The notes beneath the pieces are model-generated. The model did not search any database. It was not told the DNA's origin and saw only the letters and a list, made by a program, of their open reading frames with translations. A stretch of 32,000 nt of DNA, from the NCBI RefSeq assembly GCF_002310835.1, contig NZ_CP011041.1:360001-392000 (forward strand), in the 5' to 3' direction. The stretch's first letter is position 1, and every line of letters starts with the position of its first letter. Position numbers and translations under genes: made by a program. Below are positions 1-19,718 of this stretch, in pieces. Origin of the DNA: Pseudoalteromonas tetraodonis (lineage in GTDB: Bacteria; Pseudomonadota; Gammaproteobacteria; Enterobacterales; Alteromonadaceae).

Positions 1-909
1 TTTTTAAAAAAGCTCTGGGATAAAATTGTCTCTAGACGCAGAAAAACAAGCAAAGCCAGTATCTTGCATGAAGATCTTACACTTGCCTTTAGAACGTTAC
101 GTGATTACGTTGGTGAAGATATGGAGCGCATCCGTGTTGACTCTAAGCTTACCTACCAAGAGCTTAAGCTGTTTACTGAAGAGTTTGTGCCTTTGTTATC
201 ACAAGTGCTTGAGTATTACCCAGGTGAGCGCCCCATTTTTGATTTATTTGATGTAGAAAGTGAAATTCAAAAAGCACTGCATCGTAAAGTTACTTTAAAA
301 TCGGGTGGTTATTTGATCATAGATCAAACTGAAGCGATGACCACTGTTGATGTAAATACAGGCGCTTTTGTTGGTCACCGTAACCTTGAAGAAACTATTT
401 TTAATACCAACGTAGAAGCAACCTCTGCTATTGCTCGTCAACTAAGGCTGCGCAATTTGGGCGGTATTATTATTATCGACTTTATTGATATGGTAAGCGA
501 TGAGCATAAACGCCGTGTAATGCACTCATTAGAATCTGCACTCGATAAAGATCGTGCCAAATCTAATATCAATGGTTTGTCGGCATTAGGCTTAGTTGAA
601 ATGACCCGCAAACGTACCCGCGAAAGCCTAGAACATGTATTGTGTGATGTATGCCCAGCATGTTCAGGGCGAGGCTCACAAAAAACAGTTGAGACAGTCT
701 GCTATGAAATTCTTCGTGAAATAGTACGTGTTAATCGCGCTTACGATGCAGATAAGTTTGTAGTGTATGCTTCGCCTGCAGTTTGTGAAGCGCTATTAAA
801 TGATGAGTATCATAACCTCGCCGAATTAGAACTATTTATTGGAAAGCAGGTCAATATTCAAACTGAAAGTTTATACAGCCAAGAGCAGTTTGATGTGGTA
901 ATGATGTAA
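1..909 (+). CDS. rng: Ribonuclease G (RNase E/G family), C-terminal ~302 aa; the 5' end lies upstream of the window
   Basis: Frame 1 is open from nt 1 (FLKKLWDKIVSRRRK...). RNase E/G catalytic-core motifs are present: TTVDVNTGAFVG, LGGIIIIDFIDM, CDVCPACSGRG (Zn-link-like). It is followed by yhdP and tldD, as in the E. coli rng-yhdP-tldD order. Confidence 0.9.
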   Translation, partial: FLKKLWDKIVSRRRKTSKASILHEDLTLAFRTLRDYVGEDMERIRVDSKLTYQELKLFTEEFVPLLSQVLEYYPGERPIFDLFDVESEIQKALHRKVTLKSGGYLIIDQTEAMTTVDVNTGAFVGHRNLEETIFNTNVEATSAIARQLRLRNLGGIIIIDFIDMVSDEHKRRVMHSLESALDKDRAKSNINGLSALGLVEMTRKRTRESLEHVLCDVCPACSGRGSQKTVETVCYEILREIVRVNRAYDADKFVVYASPAVCEALLNDEYHNLAELELFIGKQVNIQTESLYSQEQFDVVMM

Positions 910-11799: not shown

Positions 11800-12903
11800 A
11801 TGACTAGCTATAAAGTTTTAGACGTAAACGATGACTTACCCATTCGTACCAAAGGTAAAGTACATAGTGGCAAAGTGCGTTCAGTTTATTGGTTAACCGA
11901 TGCAGATAGCAAACGCTTAATAAATGAAAAAGGCTATAACGTTCCTGCCGATACTGAATTAGCCATTATGGTTATTTCAGACAGAATTTCTGCTTTTGAT
12001 TGCATATGGCAAGGTGAAAATGGCCTAAATGGCATTCCTGGTAAAGGGATTGCATTAAACTCAGTGGCTGCTCATTGGTTTAACGTGTTTAATGAAGCCG
12101 GTTTGGCGGGTAATCATATTGTTGATATTCCTCATCCATACGTATGGATTGTTCGTAAAGCCAGTACAGTTAAAGTTGAAGCGATTGCTCGTCAATATAT
12201 TACCGGCAGTATGTGGCGCGACTACGCCAAAGGCGAAAGACACTTTTGTGGTTTGCAACTTCCCGAAGGCTTAAAAGCGAATCAAAAGCTTGAGCAAGTA
12301 CTTATAACTCCCTCTACTAAAGGTATTATAGAAGGGGTTGCTGATATTCCTGCCGTTGATGATGTAAACATCACTCGTGAAAATATTACAAACAACTTAG
12401 ATGTTTTCAATTTTAAATCGGCTGACGATGTCACCAAATACGAAAAATTATTGGTTGAAGGGTTCGAGTTAATCAGTAGTGAGTTAGCTAAGCTCGGGCA
12501 AATTTTTGTTGATACCAAATTTGAATTTGGTTACGTAGAAGATTTAAATGGTGCGCAGCAACTTATTTATATTGATGAAGTAGGGACACCCGATTCATCG
12601 CGTATTTGGGATGAAGCATGTTATAGAGATGGCAAGATTGTTGAAAACTCAAAAGAAGGTTTTCGTCAGCTGTTAATTAATAACGTACCAGAGAGTGATG
12701 TGTTATTAAATAAAGACCGTATGGCTGAGCGTGAGCAGTTAGCAAAAGATTATATTTTACCTGAATCAGTGATGCTTGAAGTGTCTGACACTTATGTGGG
12801 CATCGCTAGCAAAATTATTGGTAAAGAGATTATTATACCTAATGATCCGCGCCAAGAAGTGATTGCTATTTTAGATGCTGATTACGGTTTAATCGTTAAA
12901 TAA
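11800..12903 (+). CDS. purC: Phosphoribosylaminoimidazole-succinocarboxamide (SAICAR) synthase, long Vibrio-type form (367 aa)
   Basis: Start moved to the ATG at 11800 (GGAG-N5-ATG). The N-terminus [32 protein letters not shown] matches long-form PurC. The SAICAR synthase core includes ISDRISAFD and [14 protein letters not shown]. Confidence 0.92.
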
Positions 12904-13040
12904 CGTAGTAAGTAGACAGATATAGCAAAGCTCATTTTAACTAATGAAAAAGTATTTATTTTAAGTAACTGAGCTATAATTCTTGCAATTAGTGCTCGTC
13001 TCTAATTAACTTAACCTATGGTGAATTTTTGGGTGTGGTT

Positions 13041-13706
13041 ATGTTAGAGCGAGCATGGCAAGTTATTGCAAAACGTCGTTATTTATTAGTACTGGGTGTA
13101 TTGTTTAGTGTATCGGCTTTTGGTAATACCATTAATTTGGTTATTAAAGATCAGCATGACCAAGTATTGCCTAATGCTGTCGTAGAAATAAATCATTTAC
13201 CTTCTTCAAAAACTTCAGGCAATTTACCCACAGCGGTAATGGATCAAGTTGATAAACAGTTTTCTCCAGAGTTGCTTATTGTGCACCAAGGTCAGTACGT
13301 CGACTTTCCAAATAGCGATAATATTCGCCACCATGTTTATTCTTTTTCAAAAGCTAAACCTTTTCAATTAAAGCTCTATTCTGGCCAGCCAGAAGAACCT
13401 ATTAAGTTTGATAATCAAGGTGTTGTTGTTCTAGGCTGCAATATTCATGACTCCATGGTGGGCTATATATATGTCGCTAACAGTAGTCATGTGTATACCA
13501 GTAACGAGCAAGGCCAGGTAAAGCTGCAAGTAGACACTTTTCCTGTGCAAGCCAGTGTTTGGCATTCACTGCAAACAGCTCCCTTGGATAATAAAAAACA
13601 GTTTAATATAGAATCAACCAGCCCGTTATCAATAACTATAAATACATCTACCCCTGCACCACGTAATACCTTTGGCAGTCAATTTAGGGAAGGCAATGGC
13701 CAATAA
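13041..13706 (+). CDS. Periplasmic cupredoxin-like protein with an amicyanin-type Cu-ligand loop (family often annotated 'methylamine utilization protein')
   Basis: The ATG at 13041 gives a signal peptide (MLERAWQVIAKRRYLLVLGVLFSVSAFG). The candidate T1Cu ligands are NIRHHVYSF, followed ~35 aa later by GCNIHDSM (C-x2-H-x2-M). Confidence 0.7.
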   Translation: MLERAWQVIAKRRYLLVLGVLFSVSAFGNTINLVIKDQHDQVLPNAVVEINHLPSSKTSGNLPTAVMDQVDKQFSPELLIVHQGQYVDFPNSDNIRHHVYSFSKAKPFQLKLYSGQPEEPIKFDNQGVVVLGCNIHDSMVGYIYVANSSHVYTSNEQGQVKLQVDTFPVQASVWHSLQTAPLDNKKQFNIESTSPLSITINTSTPAPRNTFGSQFREGNGQ

Positions 13707-16011
13707 TTTACGCAGTCGTATTACAACGCTTTGCGTTGGCTTGGTATTACTCACTACCTTGGTTAGTTTACTGAGCTTTTGGTGGTCTACCAGTAAATTT
13801 CAGGCAGAAAAAGTGCAACAAAATATAACGGTTGCGCAAAGCGTTTATAAACAATATTTAAAATCAAAAGAGAGCTTATTATTAACAGCCGCAAAGGTGT
13901 TAACCGCTGATTTTGGTTTTAAGCAAGCGGTTGCAACTCGTGATGCCGCCACTATTAGCAGTGTGTTATACAACCACAGTCAACGGATCAATGCGGATCT
14001 TATGCTGTTGCTCGATTTATCAGGGCGGTTAGTATCAGCTAATGTTAATGCACAAAATTTTGCCGATAATCTACAGCCCTTAATGGATGAGTTATTAAAT
14101 AACTCTGAGCAATCGAGCTTTGTGGTGTTAAATAACCAGCTGTACCAAGTGATTTTATTGCCCGTTAAAACTCCCAGAACCATAGCTTACAGTTTGGTCG
14201 GATTTAAAATAACATCTGCAGTGGCCACTGAACTAAAAAGCTTAACCGGAATGGAGGTTAGTTTTGTTGCGCAATTAGATGATTTTGCAACAAGCTCGCT
14301 AGTATCCCAACCAGATAACTTTCAACCAATAGCGTACTTTACCAATAAAACTACGGCTCGTTTTTTTGCCGAATACTTGGCCTATGAAAACGAACAAATA
14401 GCTTTACCCTCTTTACAATCGCATCCGATAACCTTACTGCTTAGCGCAGATTTAACCTCGAGTTATCGCGATATTGAGCAATTATTATTAACGCTGATCA
14501 CACTCGCTGTTTTAACTATGTTATTTGGTGTGATCACCAGTAGTTTGTTAGCAAATAATTTAACGACAGGACTTTCACAGTTAGCGGTTATTGCCAGACA
14601 GTTTGCAAAAGGCGACTACCGCTTTAAATTTGAAGGTAAAAAGCAAAGCAGTGAAATAGAAACGCTCGTGAATGCTTTTAATAACATGGGTAATGATATT
14701 AATAAGCGTGAGCAGCAAATAAGTTTTCAAGCACATCACGATACTTTAACAGGGTTTTATAACCGTTCTGCTATGTTAGATTTATTAGCTAAGCGGCTCA
14801 CTAATGATGCGCGGTACACGCTTGTTGCTATTGATATAAAAGGCTTAAGGCATATAAACGATAAGCTTGGTCCGCAAGTAGGGGATGGATGTTTAATTGC
14901 AGTGGCAAACCGTATTCGTCAATTTTCTGATGAGCTAGGTGGTTTTCATGCCCGTATTGGTGGCGATGAATTTTTAACGGTTTACCCTTGTGCAGAGGTT
15001 GAGCAGGTAAAATGTGCAGTGGCTGATTTACTCAAGCAATTACAGCTAGCTTACAAGGTTAAAAATTTAAAAATAAGCTTACGTTTTAATGCTGGTATTG
15101 TGCAATACCCAGAGCAAGGGACTAAAGCAGACGATTTAATGCGACGTGTACTCATTGCTGTAGATGCAGCTACAACGAGTCAGCAAAGCTTACATTATTA
15201 TCAAGACGGTGAAGATGAGGCGCATTTAGACCGTTTAATTATGCTTGATGAACTCAAACAAGCAATTGATGATGATAATGGACAATTATTTATGACCTAT
15301 CAGCCTAAATTGAATATTAAAAGCCAGAAAATTGATAAGGTAGAGTCTCTTATTCGTTGGCAACGAAAAGATGGTGGCTGGGTCTCGCCTGAGGTCTTTA
15401 TTGATTTAGCCGAGCAGTCAGGGTTAATAGTAGAGCTGACCGCTTGGGTTGTCGAGACTGTGATTGCACAAATAGCCGATTGGTCAAAAAAGGATATTCA
15501 TTTACAAGCCGCTATTAATGTTTCTGCCCAAGATATTGCTCATTCAGGTTTTCACGCTTCGTTGGTAGCCACCTTAAATAAATACCAAGTAAACCCAAGC
15601 TCTGTCACTATTGAACTGACGGAGCGCGATATGATTGAAAATGAAGCCCAAGGTATTAAAGCGTTAGAAGATTTAAAAACTATTGGCGTTAAAATCTCAT
15701 TAGACGATTACGGTGTCGGACAAACATCATTGGGGCGCTTAAAAATGTTACCTATTGATGAGCTTAAGTTAGATAAATGCTTTATTTTAACCCTGCACGA
15801 ATCACAAAAAGATCAATACATAGTGCGCTCTTCAATCACACTGGGTCACCAATTGGGGTTTTCTGTTGTGGCTGAAGGGGTAGAAACCGCTGAGTCTTTA
15901 TCAATGCTTCACGAAATGCAATGCGATCATGCGCAAGGTTACTATTTAAGTCGCCCTTTAAAAGCGCAGCAATTAGAACAATGGTTAGAGGAATATCAGC
16001 GTGTACATTAA
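13696..16011 (+). CDS. Membrane-bound GGDEF-EAL protein (diguanylate cyclase/phosphodiesterase) with a large periplasmic sensor domain and a HAMP-like linker
   Basis: The ATG at 13696 is preceded by AGGGAAGG and overlaps the upstream gene by 11 nt. Two TMs flank a ~230-aa periplasmic region. GGDEF motif RIGGDEF at 14953-14973. EAL-domain motifs ESLIRW (15343-15351), ELTE, DDYGVGQTSL, KLDKCF, AEGVET, QGYYLSRP. Confidence 0.9.
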   Translation: MANNLRSRITTLCVGLVLLTTLVSLLSFWWSTSKFQAEKVQQNITVAQSVYKQYLKSKESLLLTAAKVLTADFGFKQAVATRDAATISSVLYNHSQRINADLMLLLDLSGRLVSANVNAQNFADNLQPLMDELLNNSEQSSFVVLNNQLYQVILLPVKTPRTIAYSLVGFKITSAVATELKSLTGMEVSFVAQLDDFATSSLVSQPDNFQPIAYFTNKTTARFFAEYLAYENEQIALPSLQSHPITLLLSADLTSSYRDIEQLLLTLITLAVLTMLFGVITSSLLANNLTTGLSQLAVIARQFAKGDYRFKFEGKKQSSEIETLVNAFNNMGNDINKREQQISFQAHHDTLTGFYNRSAMLDLLAKRLTNDARYTLVAIDIKGLRHINDKLGPQVGDGCLIAVANRIRQFSDELGGFHARIGGDEFLTVYPCAEVEQVKCAVADLLKQLQLAYKVKNLKISLRFNAGIVQYPEQGTKADDLMRRVLIAVDAATTSQQSLHYYQDGEDEAHLDRLIMLDELKQAIDDDNGQLFMTYQPKLNIKSQKIDKVESLIRWQRKDGGWVSPEVFIDLAEQSGLIVELTAWVVETVIAQIADWSKKDIHLQAAINVSAQDIAHSGFHASLVATLNKYQVNPSSVTIELTERDMIENEAQGIKALEDLKTIGVKISLDDYGVGQTSLGRLKMLPIDELKLDKCFILTLHESQKDQYIVRSSITLGHQLGFSVVAEGVETAESLSMLHEMQCDHAQGYYLSRPLKAQQLEQWLEEYQRVH

Positions 16012-16831
16012 GTTATTATTCGCCTTGGCACTCTCATTTTGTAGTGCGTTAAGTATGGCTGCTACGGGGAAATTATTAGCAACACCTGGGGTGTCTCAAA
16101 TTGAAGGCAGTGCAGGGGGCGGATTAGTTCCTTGGGCACAATTAGCAGGATATGCCAGTGAAGACGAATGGGCTGTTAATGGTTTTTGTAGTCGTGCTGA
16201 TGTTACTGACTACCGTCTTGATGCCTGCGGCATGCAACTAAACCTATTCAATCGTGTTGAGCTCAGTTATGCAGTGCAGCAGTTTGATGTGCCTGCACTC
16301 AATACCGAAATAGAGCAGTCAATTTCTGGGGCTAAAATTCGTTTATATGGTGATGTAGTTTACAGTCAGTGGCCACAACTAAGCATGGGTTTACAGCATA
16401 AATCACTAGAGGATGGCACAGTAGCAAAGTTAGTTGGCGCAAAAAATACCAGTGGTACAGATGTGTACCTAGCCGCCAGTAAATTACATTTGGGCGCACT
16501 TGCTGGGTACAACTGGTTTTGGAATGTGACCACCCGCTACAGTAAAGCCAATCAGCTAGGACTGTTAGGATATGGCGGGGCTAATGAGGGCAGCCATATT
16601 TTGCTAGAAGCAAGTAGTGCAGTTTTTGTAAGTCGTGAACTTGCCATTGGTGTTGAATATCGACAAAAAGCCAACAACTTGGGGTTAGGCGAACAAGATT
16701 GGCGTGATTTATTTATAGCGTGGATACCAAATAAGCATATGAGTGTGACTGCGGCCTATTTAGATTTAGGGCGGATTGCTGGTGTTGATAATCAAACTGG
16801 CTGGTATTTATCGGTTACGGGGTATTGGTAA
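16001..16831 (+). CDS. DUF3034-family protein, probable outer-membrane beta-barrel
   Basis: GTG start at 16001, with GAGG 9-10 nt upstream and an 11-nt overlap with the upstream gene. Signal peptide MYIKLLFALALSFCSALSMA. Alternating-hydrophobicity segments and a C-terminal aromatic (SVTGYW) fit a barrel. The DUF3034 name is from memory of similar sequences. Confidence 0.6.
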   Translation: MYIKLLFALALSFCSALSMAATGKLLATPGVSQIEGSAGGGLVPWAQLAGYASEDEWAVNGFCSRADVTDYRLDACGMQLNLFNRVELSYAVQQFDVPALNTEIEQSISGAKIRLYGDVVYSQWPQLSMGLQHKSLEDGTVAKLVGAKNTSGTDVYLAASKLHLGALAGYNWFWNVTTRYSKANQLGLLGYGGANEGSHILLEASSAVFVSRELAIGVEYRQKANNLGLGEQDWRDLFIAWIPNKHMSVTAAYLDLGRIAGVDNQTGWYLSVTGYW

Positions 16832-17250
16832 TGAAACTAAGTGTATTTATTTTTTGTTGTTTAAACTTACTTGCAGGGTGTACAACCCAACCCAACACCT
16901 CTTTGTATCACCAGCTTGGCGAACAAGCTGGGCTTGAGAAACTAACTGATAGTTTTATTACACAAATAGGTAATGACAAACAAGTGTTTCATTACTTTGA
17001 GCACAGTAATATCAGTCATTTTCGACAAGGGTTTATTAGCCATTTATGTTCGCTGGTGGAGGGCCCTTGTGAATATAAAGGTGACTCTATGGTTGCTATT
17101 CATACTGGCATGAATATAAACGAAAAAGACTTCAATCACGTTGTCGATTTATTAATAAATGCAATGAACGAGCAAAATATCCCACATACAGTGCAAAATA
17201 AAATTTTAGCTAAAATGGCGCCATTGCGTGGCGAAATTATTAAGATTTAA
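16831..17250 (+). CDS. Group-1-like truncated (2/2) haemoglobin with a lipoprotein signal peptide
   Basis: The ATG at 16831 shares 1 nt with the upstream stop (TAATG). MKLSVFIFCCLNLLAGC has lipobox LAGC followed by Thr at +2. The bacterial-globin core is LYHQLGEQAGLEKLTDSFI...FHYF...GPCEYKGDSMVAIHTGMNI (candidate proximal His)...DFNHVVDLL...MAPLRGEI. Confidence 0.75.
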   Translation: MKLSVFIFCCLNLLAGCTTQPNTSLYHQLGEQAGLEKLTDSFITQIGNDKQVFHYFEHSNISHFRQGFISHLCSLVEGPCEYKGDSMVAIHTGMNINEKDFNHVVDLLINAMNEQNIPHTVQNKILAKMAPLRGEIIKI

Positions 17251-17290
17251 TTTTATAATCAAATGCATACATTTAAAAATATGCTTGGTA

Positions 17291-18034
17291 TTACTCACTT
17301 GTAATTTTGGCAAGATCCGCAGTTTTATATCGTCTTTGCATATGAATACTCGATCTATGAATTAAATTTCTGATAAATGTACTGCGGTTTGAGTGCGAAC
17401 CTGCATTAGCGCTTGTTATTTCACTAATAAAGCTTCGATCTTCGGCAATCGGGTAGGGTTTTATGCCAATCATACTTAGCCCTACTTCTGTGTGAAATTG
17501 CATATCGACATCTACGGGTCTAAAAAATGGTTTTCTTTGCAGTAGTTTTTTAGCCCCACTTAATGAAATGATGTAGCCTTGAGTGCCATTTGGTGCTTTT
17601 TTATAATTACCGACTGTTAGATTATTTTCTAATGGGGCACTGTCAATAAATGGAAAATTTCTGTTGTCAGATAATTTTATTAAATCCCAGTTTTTCAATT
17701 TAATTGCCGCATCAACAACATCTTTAAGCGAAGCCTCAATGAAAAGGTCATCCTCTAATACAACACAAAAAGGCATGTTTTCATTAACCATTTTTTGCCA
17801 AAGGCGCATATGACTTACATAGCAACCAATTTCACCTGCAGATAGATTGCGATTGTAACGTTTTTTATTTTTTTTCGGGCAATACCACTTGAGGGTTTCT
17901 TCTTCACTAAGGTTTTTGCCAATGGTCGCTTCAAAACGTTCAGCATTTAAGTGTAGACTGGTAAGTCGCTTCAGGGTTGTTTCCCAACGGTCTTCGCAGC
18001 CTTGCATATTGATAATGTAAAAAGGGATTGGCAT
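17291..18034 (-). CDS. Glycosyltransferase family 25 (LPS/LOS glycosyltransferase)
   Basis: N-terminal PFYIINMQGCEDR, VVLEDD (DxD-like) and overall ~250-aa size are typical of GT25. GC is lower than in neighbouring genes by hand count. Confidence 0.8.
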   Translation of the reverse strand: MPIPFYIINMQGCEDRWETTLKRLTSLHLNAERFEATIGKNLSEEETLKWYCPKKNKKRYNRNLSAGEIGCYVSHMRLWQKMVNENMPFCVVLEDDLFIEASLKDVVDAAIKLKNWDLIKLSDNRNFPFIDSAPLENNLTVGNYKKAPNGTQGYIISLSGAKKLLQRKPFFRPVDVDMQFHTEVGLSMIGIKPYPIAEDRSFISEITSANAGSHSNRSTFIRNLIHRSSIHMQRRYKTADLAKITSE

Positions 18035-18997: not shown

Positions 18998-19348
18998 TTA
19001 ACTATAAGGGCAATTTTTACAACCATTTTTGCAGCAAGTACCACGCTTTAAAAAATACCACTTACTAAACACCATGTAATTGTTCTGCATGGTGTAATCT
19101 AACCCTTCAATTAAATTATCATTACTTCTAAATTGTTTAGCGAAAGCTATTTGGGTTTTAATTGGCTGGGTATATATAGTTTCTAAATAGTAATTAATTT
19201 TAGCAAGAGTACATGATCGGCATAAGCAGCTGGTTGCTGTATCATCGAGTGGTAAAATAGCGGGTAACTGATAACACCAACATGTGGTTATATCATTAAC
19301 ATTACAGTTAAGCGTTGTATTACATTGGCTGCAGTTTATCTGGGTCAT
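18998..19348 (-). CDS. Cysteine-rich CWC-type protein with a DUF5522-like C-terminal part
   Basis: MTQINCSQCNTTLNCNVNDITTCWCYQLP (CWC motif), then C-terminal FLKRGTCCKNGCKNCPY. I prefer the start at 19348; in-frame upstream ATGs at 19390 and 19483 are possible. Confidence 0.55.
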   Translation of the reverse strand: MTQINCSQCNTTLNCNVNDITTCWCYQLPAILPLDDTATSCLCRSCTLAKINYYLETIYTQPIKTQIAFAKQFRSNDNLIEGLDYTMQNNYMVFSKWYFLKRGTCCKNGCKNCPYS

Positions 19349-19391
19349 TTTAGGTCTTATTAACAGTAGAGCAGCAAGAATAACAAACATT

Positions 19392-19718
19392 ATGAATATA
19401 CAAAAAGCATTGGCTGAATTTATTACTTTTGGTGAGCATAGAGACGAAGCAATCTCAGTAATAGTGTCAAGCTCTGCGCACAATGCTAAGCCACTTTATA
19501 AGTTAACGACACCCGTATTGATTGATGTGCTTAAGCGCTGTGTAAGTAATGAAATAGATCTCGATGATCTCGCGCTTTGGGCCAACGTCATTGAATCAAG
19601 AGCAGATATAGATAGCGCTGAGCATGAAGGGGTTATTTATGCGCTGAGTAATAGCGAGCAAATGGGCGAGTTTAGCCACAAAAAGCTTGAACAATTATTA
19701 GCATTATTAAAGGACTAG
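19392..19718 (+). CDS. Hypothetical protein (108 aa)
   Basis: ORF from the ATG at 19392 (MNIQKALAEFITFGEH...). The upstream part of the tracked ORF overlaps the divergent gene. No family recognised and no clear SD. Confidence 0.4.
   Translation: MNIQKALAEFITFGEHRDEAISVIVSSSAHNAKPLYKLTTPVLIDVLKRCVSNEIDLDDLALWANVIESRADIDSAEHEGVIYALSNSEQMGEFSHKKLEQLLALLKD

Follow-up and report, generated by a model that had tools for sequence, protein, structure and literature searches.

In the tripartite YfiBNR (TpbB) system of Pseudomonas aeruginosa (PMC2837407, PMC3375315, PMC4655355, PMC4887326), an outer-membrane lipoprotein sequesters the periplasmic repressor of an inner-membrane enzyme that makes cyclic di-GMP (c-di-GMP) (PMC4655355, PMC4887326). 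In two further systems, NspS-MbaA of Vibrio cholerae and LapD-LapG of Pseudomonas fluorescens, the periplasmic domain of a GGDEF-EAL membrane protein is wired to a separate partner, the polyamine-binding NspS and the protease LapG, respectively; both partners lack redox cofactors, and both systems lack outer-membrane components. Haem proteins tune c-di-GMP enzymes in response to nitric oxide (NO) or O2 in the systems built on H-NOX/HnoX, NosP, globin-coupled sensors (DosC, HemAT type) and DosP, and to our knowledge all characterised haem-based inputs of this kind are cytoplasmic. Here we describe a locus of Pseudoalteromonas tetraodonis (RefSeq assembly GCF_002310835.1, contig NZ_CP011041.1), analysed within a window of 32,000 nucleotides (nt; contig positions 360,001 to 392,000, numbered here from 1), in which four consecutive open reading frames (ORFs) encode an exported cupredoxin (ORF1), a membrane-bound c-di-GMP enzyme (ORF2), a predicted outer-membrane barrel of the DUF3034 family (ORF3) and a lipoprotein truncated globin (ORF4). 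The four genes are conserved together in many bacteria, and our tentative reading, which we hold as somewhat short of probable, is that this one operon encodes a four-component, envelope-spanning signalling module that senses the state of a haem/copper pair and responds through c-di-GMP.

The resemblance of this cassette to YfiBNR is one of logic only. Both operons code for a periplasmic protein, an inner-membrane c-di-GMP enzyme with a periplasmic domain and a HAMP domain, and an outer-membrane lipoprotein; the order is periplasmic protein, enzyme and outer-membrane component in both, and in the cassette, as in YfiBNR, the signal would be received in the periplasm. However, no protein of one system is homologous to a protein of the other: YfiR is not a cupredoxin, YfiB is Pal/OmpA-like and not a globin, and ORF2 scores only 101 bits against DgcN/YfiN (cut-off 325), through its second transmembrane segment (TM), HAMP and GGDEF. 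YfiBNR also lacks a barrel and metal or haem cofactors, and its enzyme YfiN synthesises c-di-GMP, whereas the output conserved in the cassette is, judged by its motifs, an EAL phosphodiesterase. Membership in YfiBNR was rejected, given that ORF1, ORF3 and ORF4 have no YfiR or YfiB family matches (Pfam, NCBIfam). As an analogy, YfiBNR nevertheless seems the closest functional counterpart, nearer than LapD/LapG, which had been put forward in an original prediction made from the DNA sequence alone.

The known haem-based systems (H-NOX, NosP, PAS and 3/3 sensor globins) are often fused to their output domain, whereas the haem protein of the cassette would be an exported, lipid-anchored 2/2 globin encoded by a gene of its own, together with a cupredoxin and an outer-membrane barrel. 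Assignment of ORF4 to the globin-coupled sensors was rejected on the same grounds, because it is of the 2/2 type, a separate polypeptide and exported, rather than a 3/3 globin fused to an output domain in the cytoplasm.

Each of the four families is already annotated in databases, and taken together they would amount to an envelope c-di-GMP system controlled by accessory proteins. A literature search outside which most subscription journals lay returned no account of the cassette, of a DUF3034 function or of an exported trHbN (group 1 truncated haemoglobin), in keeping with the original prediction, which knew of no characterised example of the arrangement. The truncated haemoglobin genes discussed in one candidate paper (PMC3770913) proved to be unrelated. 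Since the set recurs in dozens of proteobacterial genera and no study of it was found, we regard it as a probable envelope signalling system that has yet to be characterised.

Conservation of the four-gene cassette

To survey the cassette, an alignment of ORF1 was run against one genome per GTDB species, and the six-frame ORFs of the best 80 loci were searched with profiles of the four window proteins; 73 loci had enough downstream sequence to be evaluated. Relatives of ORF1 occur in at least 579 species-level genomes. The best 80 loci cover 34 genus-level labels, including Pseudoalteromonas, Colwellia, Methylophaga, Alteromonas, Glaciecola, Thalassotalea and Oleispira as well as Thalassolituus, Teredinibacter, Kangiellaceae, Pleionea, Marinomonas, Pseudomonas and Nitrosomonas. 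Of the 73 evaluable loci, 71 (28 genus labels) have the complete set in the same order as the window, and most of the orthologous genes either overlap their neighbour or lie no more than 20 nt from it. The two exceptions are a fragmentary contig of a metagenome-assembled genome (MAG) and the locus of Marinomonas arctica, in which the cupredoxin, DUF3034 and globin genes directly adjoin each other without a GGDEF-EAL gene. The genes flanking the cupredoxin-anchored loci vary, and clustering of all flanking ORFs gave no further gene conserved with the four: the family that ranks next in spread is found in only 5 labels. Chance adjacency of the four genes is thus excluded, and the co-occurrence that the original prediction had suggested looking for across genomes was found.

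Two of the loci retrieved are taxonomically unusual. L071, a contig binned into a Flavobacteriales MAG, carries a complete cassette and is probably a mis-assigned proteobacterial contig, and an alphaproteobacterial contig of the Dongiaceae (L069) is too short to judge.

In P. tetraodonis, the four genes lie on one strand (Table 1) and are linked by two overlaps of 11 nt and one of 1 nt. The stretch shared by ORF1 and ORF2 (13696-13706) reads ATGGCCAATAA and that shared by ORF2 and ORF3 (16001-16011) reads GTGTACATTAA; ORF3 and ORF4 have in common the A of TAATG at 16831. The letters of all three junctions were inspected one by one. Shine-Dalgarno-like purine runs, AGGGAAGG and GAGGA, precede the starts of ORF2 and ORF3, respectively, by a few bases. 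Upstream, the cassette is separated by a 137-nt gap from the stop of purC (SAICAR synthetase) at 12903, and its downstream neighbour is a convergent gene for a family-25 glycosyltransferase (GT25) that ends at 17291. Terminator-like sites are no more frequent in 12700-17500 than in shuffled sequences (4 seen, 4.1 expected), and none is convincing. The layout originally described, including the three overlaps, the isolated position of the block and the absence of an internal hairpin, was thereby borne out. By all appearances, the four genes are co-transcribed as one operon.

Table 1 Features of the cassette in the window and of related loci (L, locus handles of the scans; aa, amino acids)
Feature	Sequence	Position (nt)	Strand	Position or length (aa)	Remarks
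Conserved upstream block	window	12955-13020	+		invariant columns in an alignment of 8 Pseudoalteromonas upstream regions
ORF1, cupredoxin	window	13041-13706	+	221 aa	
ORF1, PxPRNTF	window	13653-13673		205-211	
ORF2, dCache_3-HAMP-GGDEF-EAL	window	13696-16011	+	771 aa	
ORF2, TM1	window			7-32	
ORF2, periplasmic dCache_3-like domain	window	13792-14469		~33-258	Pfam
ORF2, TM2	window			259-287	
ORF2, HAMP	window			284-334	
ORF2, GGDEF	window			346-493	motif GGDEF at aa 422, without RxxD I-site
ORF2, EAL	window			519-754	motifs ESLIR, ELTE, DDYGVG, KLD, EGVE, QGY
ORF3, DUF3034 barrel	window	16001-16831	+	276 aa	GTG start
ORF4, lipoprotein truncated globin	window	16831-17250	+	139 aa	
Cupredoxin, DUF3034 and globin genes	L080	8028-9988			Marinomonas arctica
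Extra cyclase gene	L001	10176-11594	-		Methylophaga
Extra GGDEF/EAL-type gene	L018	6110-7798			Colwellia group/Kangiellaceae
Globin-DUF3034 fusion P0287	L088	6001-7281			
Globin-DUF3034 fusion P0304	L089	1543-2922			
Small cupredoxin	L116	3188-3568			
Small cupredoxin	L123	4057-4638			
Small cupredoxin	L124	1574-1951			
Small cupredoxin	L136	3879-4208			
Small cupredoxin	L140	4003-4362			
Small cupredoxin	L152	4555-4887			
Small cupredoxin	L156	8216-8533			
Small cupredoxin	L165	3568-3888			

Putative copper and haem sites of the exported proteins

ORF1 has a hydrophobic segment near its N-terminus (aa 15-35) corresponding to a signal peptide; a Tat (twin-arginine translocation) signal suggested by KRRYLL was dropped, because the two arginines are not conserved among homologues. 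The ligands of a type-1 Cu site (His97, Cys133, His136 and Met139) are invariant in an alignment of 35 sequences, in which they fall within the blocks FPNSDxIRHHVYSFS and GCNIHDSMVGY, and CxxHxxM is kept in all 21 distant long homologues and in eight of nine short ones. An AlphaFold2 model of the protein (pLDDT 81.6) has a cupredoxin fold as judged by Foldseek, in which amicyanin, pseudoazurin and plastocyanin dominate the top 50 matches (prob 1.0), the superposition on pseudoazurin giving a root-mean-square deviation of about 2.6 A over 99 columns. The invariant ligands and these matches together identify ORF1 as a cupredoxin with a complete type-1 Cu ligand set, which presumably binds copper. 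Sequence-based searches with ORF1 gave no match in Pfam and no significant match among PDB sequences, and its scores lie below every curated threshold of the profile hidden Markov models (17 bits against TIGR02375 pseudoazurin, cut-off 109.85).

ORF1 shares with amicyanin, pseudoazurin and plastocyanin the fold and the order His...Cys-x2-His-x2-Met, with a Cys-x2-His-x2-Met spacing that we take to be that of amicyanin, but it is about twice their size, carries additional beta-strands on both sides of the cupredoxin core (aa 29-51 and 151-200) and has an invariant P-x-P-R-N-T-F motif towards the C-terminus. The family comprises 6,610 clusters at 90% identity, whose members are named 'methylamine utilization protein' by NCBI and 'plastocyanin' by JGI; the former name presumably derives from MauL. 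Among the flanking ORFs checked, no mau genes were found near the cassette. One distant homologue is labelled 'carboxypeptidase regulatory-like domain-containing protein' by NCBI.

The second putative cofactor protein, ORF4, matches the Pfam family Bac_globin (E = 5e-14), and in the PDB it is closest to group 1 truncated haemoglobins (trHbN; top match 3aq7, E = 1e-10). The proximal His91 (F8) is found in all globins compared (74 close and 71 distant), Phe56 (CD1) in 72 and 69 of them, respectively, and a GP..Y.G..M...H motif is conserved in the family. Haem binding by ORF4 is therefore to be expected from its residues. The protein carries a lipobox (LLAG-C17), and 72 of 74 close orthologues retain the lipobox cysteine; with no Asp at position +2, the lipoprotein would be sorted to the outer membrane. 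The N-termini of distant globins look instead like Ala-x-Ala Sec signal peptides (about 25 sequences inspected by eye). The lipobox of the close relatives and the apparent signal peptides of the distant ones make export a trait of this globin family.

With the trHbN proteins of M. tuberculosis (HbN), Tetrahymena (3aq5) and Synechocystis (GlbN), ORF4 has in common the Bac_globin match, the F8 histidine and the CD1 phenylalanine, but it differs in being an exported lipoprotein, in its linkage to DUF3034, which is obligate, and in its haem pocket. The polar distal site of trHbN (Tyr at B10, Gln/Leu at E7/E11) is absent from ORF4, the distal residues of which are apolar (Ile43 at B10, Phe64 at E7 and Phe68 at E11); Ile43 and Phe64 align with Tyr25 (B10) and Gln46 (E7) of Tetrahymena trHbN, the positions mutated in PDB entries 3aq7 and 3aq8. 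The same character prevails across the family, with Ile, Val, Leu or Met at B10, Phe, Leu, Ile or Val at E7 and Phe or Leu at E11. A further hallmark is a pair of cysteines, Cys73 and Cys80, which flank the 'GP' turn between helices E and F and are both present in 74 of 74 close and 68 of 71 distant globins; the pair would fit a disulphide formed in an oxidising compartment. The apolar pocket and the invariant cysteines set ORF4 apart from classical O2-binding trHbN. Hence, of the features originally read from the sequence, the type-1 Cu cupredoxin and the truncated globin with its proximal histidine were both upheld, as was an export signal on every product of the cassette (signal peptides, two TMs and a lipobox).

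Membrane enzyme and predicted outer-membrane barrel

ORF2 consists of a periplasmic domain related to dCache_3, bounded by two TMs and followed by HAMP, GGDEF and EAL domains. The catalytic and metal-binding motifs of EAL phosphodiesterases (ExLxR, N, E(L/I)TE, DDxGxG, KxD, EGVE and QG(Y/F)) are all present (Pfam EAL match, E = 8e-67), and they are kept in 70 of 70 orthologues. The GGDEF domain behaves differently: GG[DE]EF is kept in 23 orthologues, mostly from Pseudoalteromonas, and degenerate in the other 47. We conclude from this conservation that the output common to the family is c-di-GMP hydrolysis by the EAL domain, whereas cyclase activity, possible in P. tetraodonis where the motif is intact, is no family property. 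By its motifs, the originally predicted catalytic competence of the enzyme is upheld for the EAL domain throughout the family; for the GGDEF domain it is possible in this species but no general trait. No equivalog cut-off of NCBIfam is reached by ORF2, which places it outside the c-di-GMP enzymes named in that library; NCBI annotates a betaproteobacterial orthologue as 'EAL domain-containing protein'. A search with the periplasmic domain retrieved 25 proteins, mostly fragments, from which alternative output domains are not visible. In five loci (L018, L034, L046, L047 and L075), the ORF2 orthologue is in two pieces, which could be due to a frameshift, a pseudogene or an assembly error.

The succession of TM, periplasmic domain, TM, HAMP, GGDEF and EAL is also that of LapD, and the cytoplasmic part of ORF2 partially matches the NCBIfam LapD model (E = 5.6e-34). 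ORF2 might then be a c-di-GMP receptor that relays the cytoplasmic level inside-out to a periplasmic partner. This seems to us extremely improbable: LapD is catalytically dead, with a degenerate EAL domain, whereas the EAL motifs of ORF2 and its orthologues are intact; the periplasmic domain matches dCache_3 and not the LapD/MoxY N-terminal domain; the 117 bits of the partial match fall far below the cut-off of 1020; and clustering of the flanking ORFs revealed no gene for a LapG-type protease in any locus. We therefore rejected assignment of ORF2 to the LapD-type receptors.

Evidence on the receiver of the signal comes from Methylophaga. Right after the globin gene, a convergent gene of one Methylophaga locus (L001) encodes a cyclase with GGEEF and RxxD motifs, and the same extra gene is found in L016, L023, L034, L035, L042, L046 and L053. 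The cyclase carries a periplasmic sensor domain of the ORF2 type, with the motif DFGF+QA...NHSQR. Recurrence of this domain on an adjoining enzyme points to it as the receiver of the cassette signal, and Methylophaga would appear to pair a cyclase and a phosphodiesterase with one type of sensor. Separately, an extra GGDEF/EAL-type gene lies directly 5' of the cassette, on the same strand, in loci of the Colwellia group and Kangiellaceae (L018, L022, L029, L030, L037 and L032).

ORF3 matches DUF3034 (PF11231; 782 clusters at 50% identity) over profile positions 1-255 of 255 (E = 6.4e-108). It has a signal peptide (ALSMA/ATG), a conserved glycine-rich segment near the N-terminus (aa ~22-56, EGxAGGGLVPWA) and a terminal Trp (...TGYW). 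Its AlphaFold2 model (pLDDT 93.4) comprises 12 long antiparallel strands and resembles outer-membrane barrels of 12-14 strands; Foldseek matches include FapF, Omp33, NanC/KdgM and OmpG along with the barrels of autotransporters and intimin. ORF3 is accordingly predicted, from the model, to be a 12-stranded outer-membrane beta-barrel.

The likeness of this barrel to channels and secretion barrels (NanC/KdgM, OmpG, FapF) raises the possibility of haem or copper trafficking, with DUF3034 as the channel, the globin as haem carrier and the cupredoxin as reductant, c-di-GMP being tied to the supply of haem/iron or copper. An exported globin tethered or fused to a barrel does recall the receptor-lipoprotein pairs of haem uptake. 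Known haem importers, however, are TonB-dependent receptors of 22 strands and not of 12, and the genes flanking the cassette include no conserved one for TonB/ExbBD, an ABC importer or haem oxygenase. Moreover, proteins with a type-1 Cu site (His-Cys-His-Met) are dedicated electron carriers, and such a site is an electron-transfer centre rather than one for copper trafficking. We consider trafficking quite improbable as the function of the set.

Barrel-globin core in distant loci

More distant relatives of the cassette were collected by a metagenome scan with a four-sequence DUF3034 alignment, which covered a remote high-GC clade, and by looking up remote representatives. The globin gene comes directly after the barrel gene in 67 of the 68 loci, and in two proteins, P0287 and P0304, a signal peptide, a globin domain and a linker of about 15 aa precede DUF3034 in a single polypeptide. 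Cupredoxin and sensor-EAL genes accompany the pair, in other gene orders, in five of the 15 fully evaluable distant loci. The tightest core of the family is thus the barrel with the exported globin, which a cupredoxin of the long or a short type often accompanies and to which a c-di-GMP enzyme is added in part of the family.

The layout of the two fusions is that of a classical autotransporter, with the passenger first and the 12-strand barrel last. Given this layout, the globin may be displayed on the outside of the cell instead of residing in the periplasm.

The four families recur in Beta- and Alphaproteobacteria in permuted or divergent orders. On a Caballeronia plasmid, according to the RefSeq annotation, the order is DUF3034, globin, cupredoxin and EAL, whereas on a Novosphingobium plasmid (RefSeq) and in several metagenome loci an EAL gene and a cupredoxin gene diverge from the DUF3034-globin pair, with the cupredoxin gene upstream of the EAL gene. 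Overall, the cassette ranges over marine Alteromonadales and Oceanospirillales, Methylophaga, Nitrosomonas, Pseudomonas, Caballeronia/Paraburkholderia and Novosphingobium. In eight loci that lack a cupredoxin of the long type, the globin gene is directly followed by one for a small exported cupredoxin bearing (R/L)C(H/G)IHPKM (Table 1); seven of the eight proteins are 105-126 aa long. A minimal blue-copper protein thus appears, from its motif and position, to substitute for the long ORF1 type.

A possible mechanism of envelope signalling

The anatomy of the cassette, the conservation of its cofactor ligands and the joint conservation of its genes are observations; that haem and copper are bound, where the components sit, how they touch, what they sense and which way they regulate we infer as follows. 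A haem-binding globin would sit on the inner side of the outer membrane, alongside the 12-stranded DUF3034 barrel, attached by a lipid anchor in P. tetraodonis and elsewhere fused to the barrel or present as a free periplasmic protein, and the soluble type-1 Cu cupredoxin would be its periplasmic partner in redox chemistry or electron transfer. The state of this haem/copper pair, set by a periplasmic oxidant or gas, would be read by the dCache-like periplasmic domain of ORF2, and the output would be altered c-di-GMP hydrolysis by the EAL domain; in the Pseudoalteromonas clade, the intact GGDEF domain may contribute cyclase activity or GTP sensing. The logic is likely to be partner switching of the YfiBNR kind: as periplasmic regulator, the cupredoxin would move back and forth between the enzyme of the inner membrane and the globin-barrel, its partner anchored in the outer membrane.

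As to the input, the original prediction had listed redox state, O2, NO and copper. H-NOX proteins selective for NO, like cytochromes c', differ from O2 binders in having an apolar distal pocket, and by this analogy the pocket of ORF4 argues against classical O2 sensing and makes NO or a general redox input the likelier signal. Copper itself would be the least likely of the listed inputs, since type-1 Cu sites are electron carriers. That the cassette represents a new class of trans-envelope sensor, in which a barrel-docked globin is the gas or redox receptor and a blue-copper protein relays its state to c-di-GMP enzymes through electron transfer or partner switching, remains in our view doubtful.

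Several points weigh against envelope signalling as the function of the set. Ten of the 15 fully evaluable distant loci lack a c-di-GMP enzyme, seven of them having the barrel and globin only and three a cupredoxin as well, and the trio of M. arctica likewise stands without one; the three exported proteins may hence have a biochemical role of their own. The co-occurrence counts rest on the best 80 matches per scan and not on random samples of the families. As Tyr B10 and Gln E7/E11 are missing, the ligand chemistry of ORF4 cannot be read from that of characterised trHbN. The contact of the cupredoxin or globin with the dCache domain is conjectural, and the model accounts neither for the role of the barrel nor for the route by which haem b would reach an exported globin, the latter being a separate question that the cassette raises. 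Of the four-gene sensing complex originally proposed, the co-conservation was confirmed; the barrel-globin set, however, is more than an accessory of the sensor, because the barrel and globin, with or without a cupredoxin, also occur without the enzyme.

These loci give weight to another explanation, according to which the three exported proteins work by themselves in the periplasm as a redox enzyme or detoxification system, for instance by turning over NO, nitrite or peroxide at the haem with electrons supplied by the blue-copper protein. The phosphodiesterase would then merely be co-expressed with them and sense the same substrate or product in its dCache pocket, without joining them in a complex. 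The small stand-alone cupredoxins that follow the globin gene in eight loci, with their full ligand set, would suit such an enzyme, as would the nature of the parts: type-1 Cu proteins carry electrons, the NO dioxygenases of the trHbN type need a reductant, and domains of the dCache type usually bind small molecules. Yet the distal pocket of the globin is without the Tyr B10 and Gln E7/E11 through which trHbN NO dioxygenases activate O2. In the cupredoxin-anchored loci, moreover, the phosphodiesterase gene is inserted between those of the cupredoxin and the barrel, with translational overlaps and across 28 genus labels, and Methylophaga carries a duplicate of the sensor domain on the cyclase adjoining the cassette. 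On balance, we judge an autonomous enzyme of this kind to be rather unlikely, and retain the envelope signalling module as our working interpretation.

If the cassette is indeed a trans-envelope sensor of a new class, it would contain the first extracytoplasmic globin sensor, and both DUF3034 and the large MauL-like family named 'methylamine utilization protein' would gain a function; to solve the cassette would be to annotate four poorly understood families together. With a globin tethered to the outer membrane and a blue-copper partner, NO or haem/copper redox would be sensed in the periplasm, the first site of action of denitrification and of oxidants released by hosts or neighbours. The cassette could also explain biofilm dispersal triggered by NO or redox conditions in organisms without the known sensors.

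Upstream region and flanking genes

An alignment of eight Pseudoalteromonas regions upstream of the cassette delimits a block with invariant columns (Table 1), which, from its conservation and position, is the probable promoter/operator region of the cassette. The block contains a perfect TATAAT (12975-12980), kept in five of the eight aligned regions, on which a consensus promoter scan made no call. A possible operator in the same block is the imperfect dyad CAATTAG-N11-CTAATTA; the motif of a known regulator was not recognised here. Exact inverted repeats were not found in the 137-nt upstream gap, and a search of the whole window against Rfam matched no family.

Housekeeping genes (rng, yhdP, tldD, purC and fbp) surround the cassette in P. 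tetraodonis. Further downstream, two ORFs on opposite strands, 18998-19483 (-) and 19284-19718 (+), share about 200 nt. The ORF on the minus strand matches DUF5522 and Cys_rich_CWC and that on the plus strand has no match; given that the overlapping frames are on opposite strands and the matches are confined to the minus-strand frame, either one of the starts or one of the ORFs is probably spurious.

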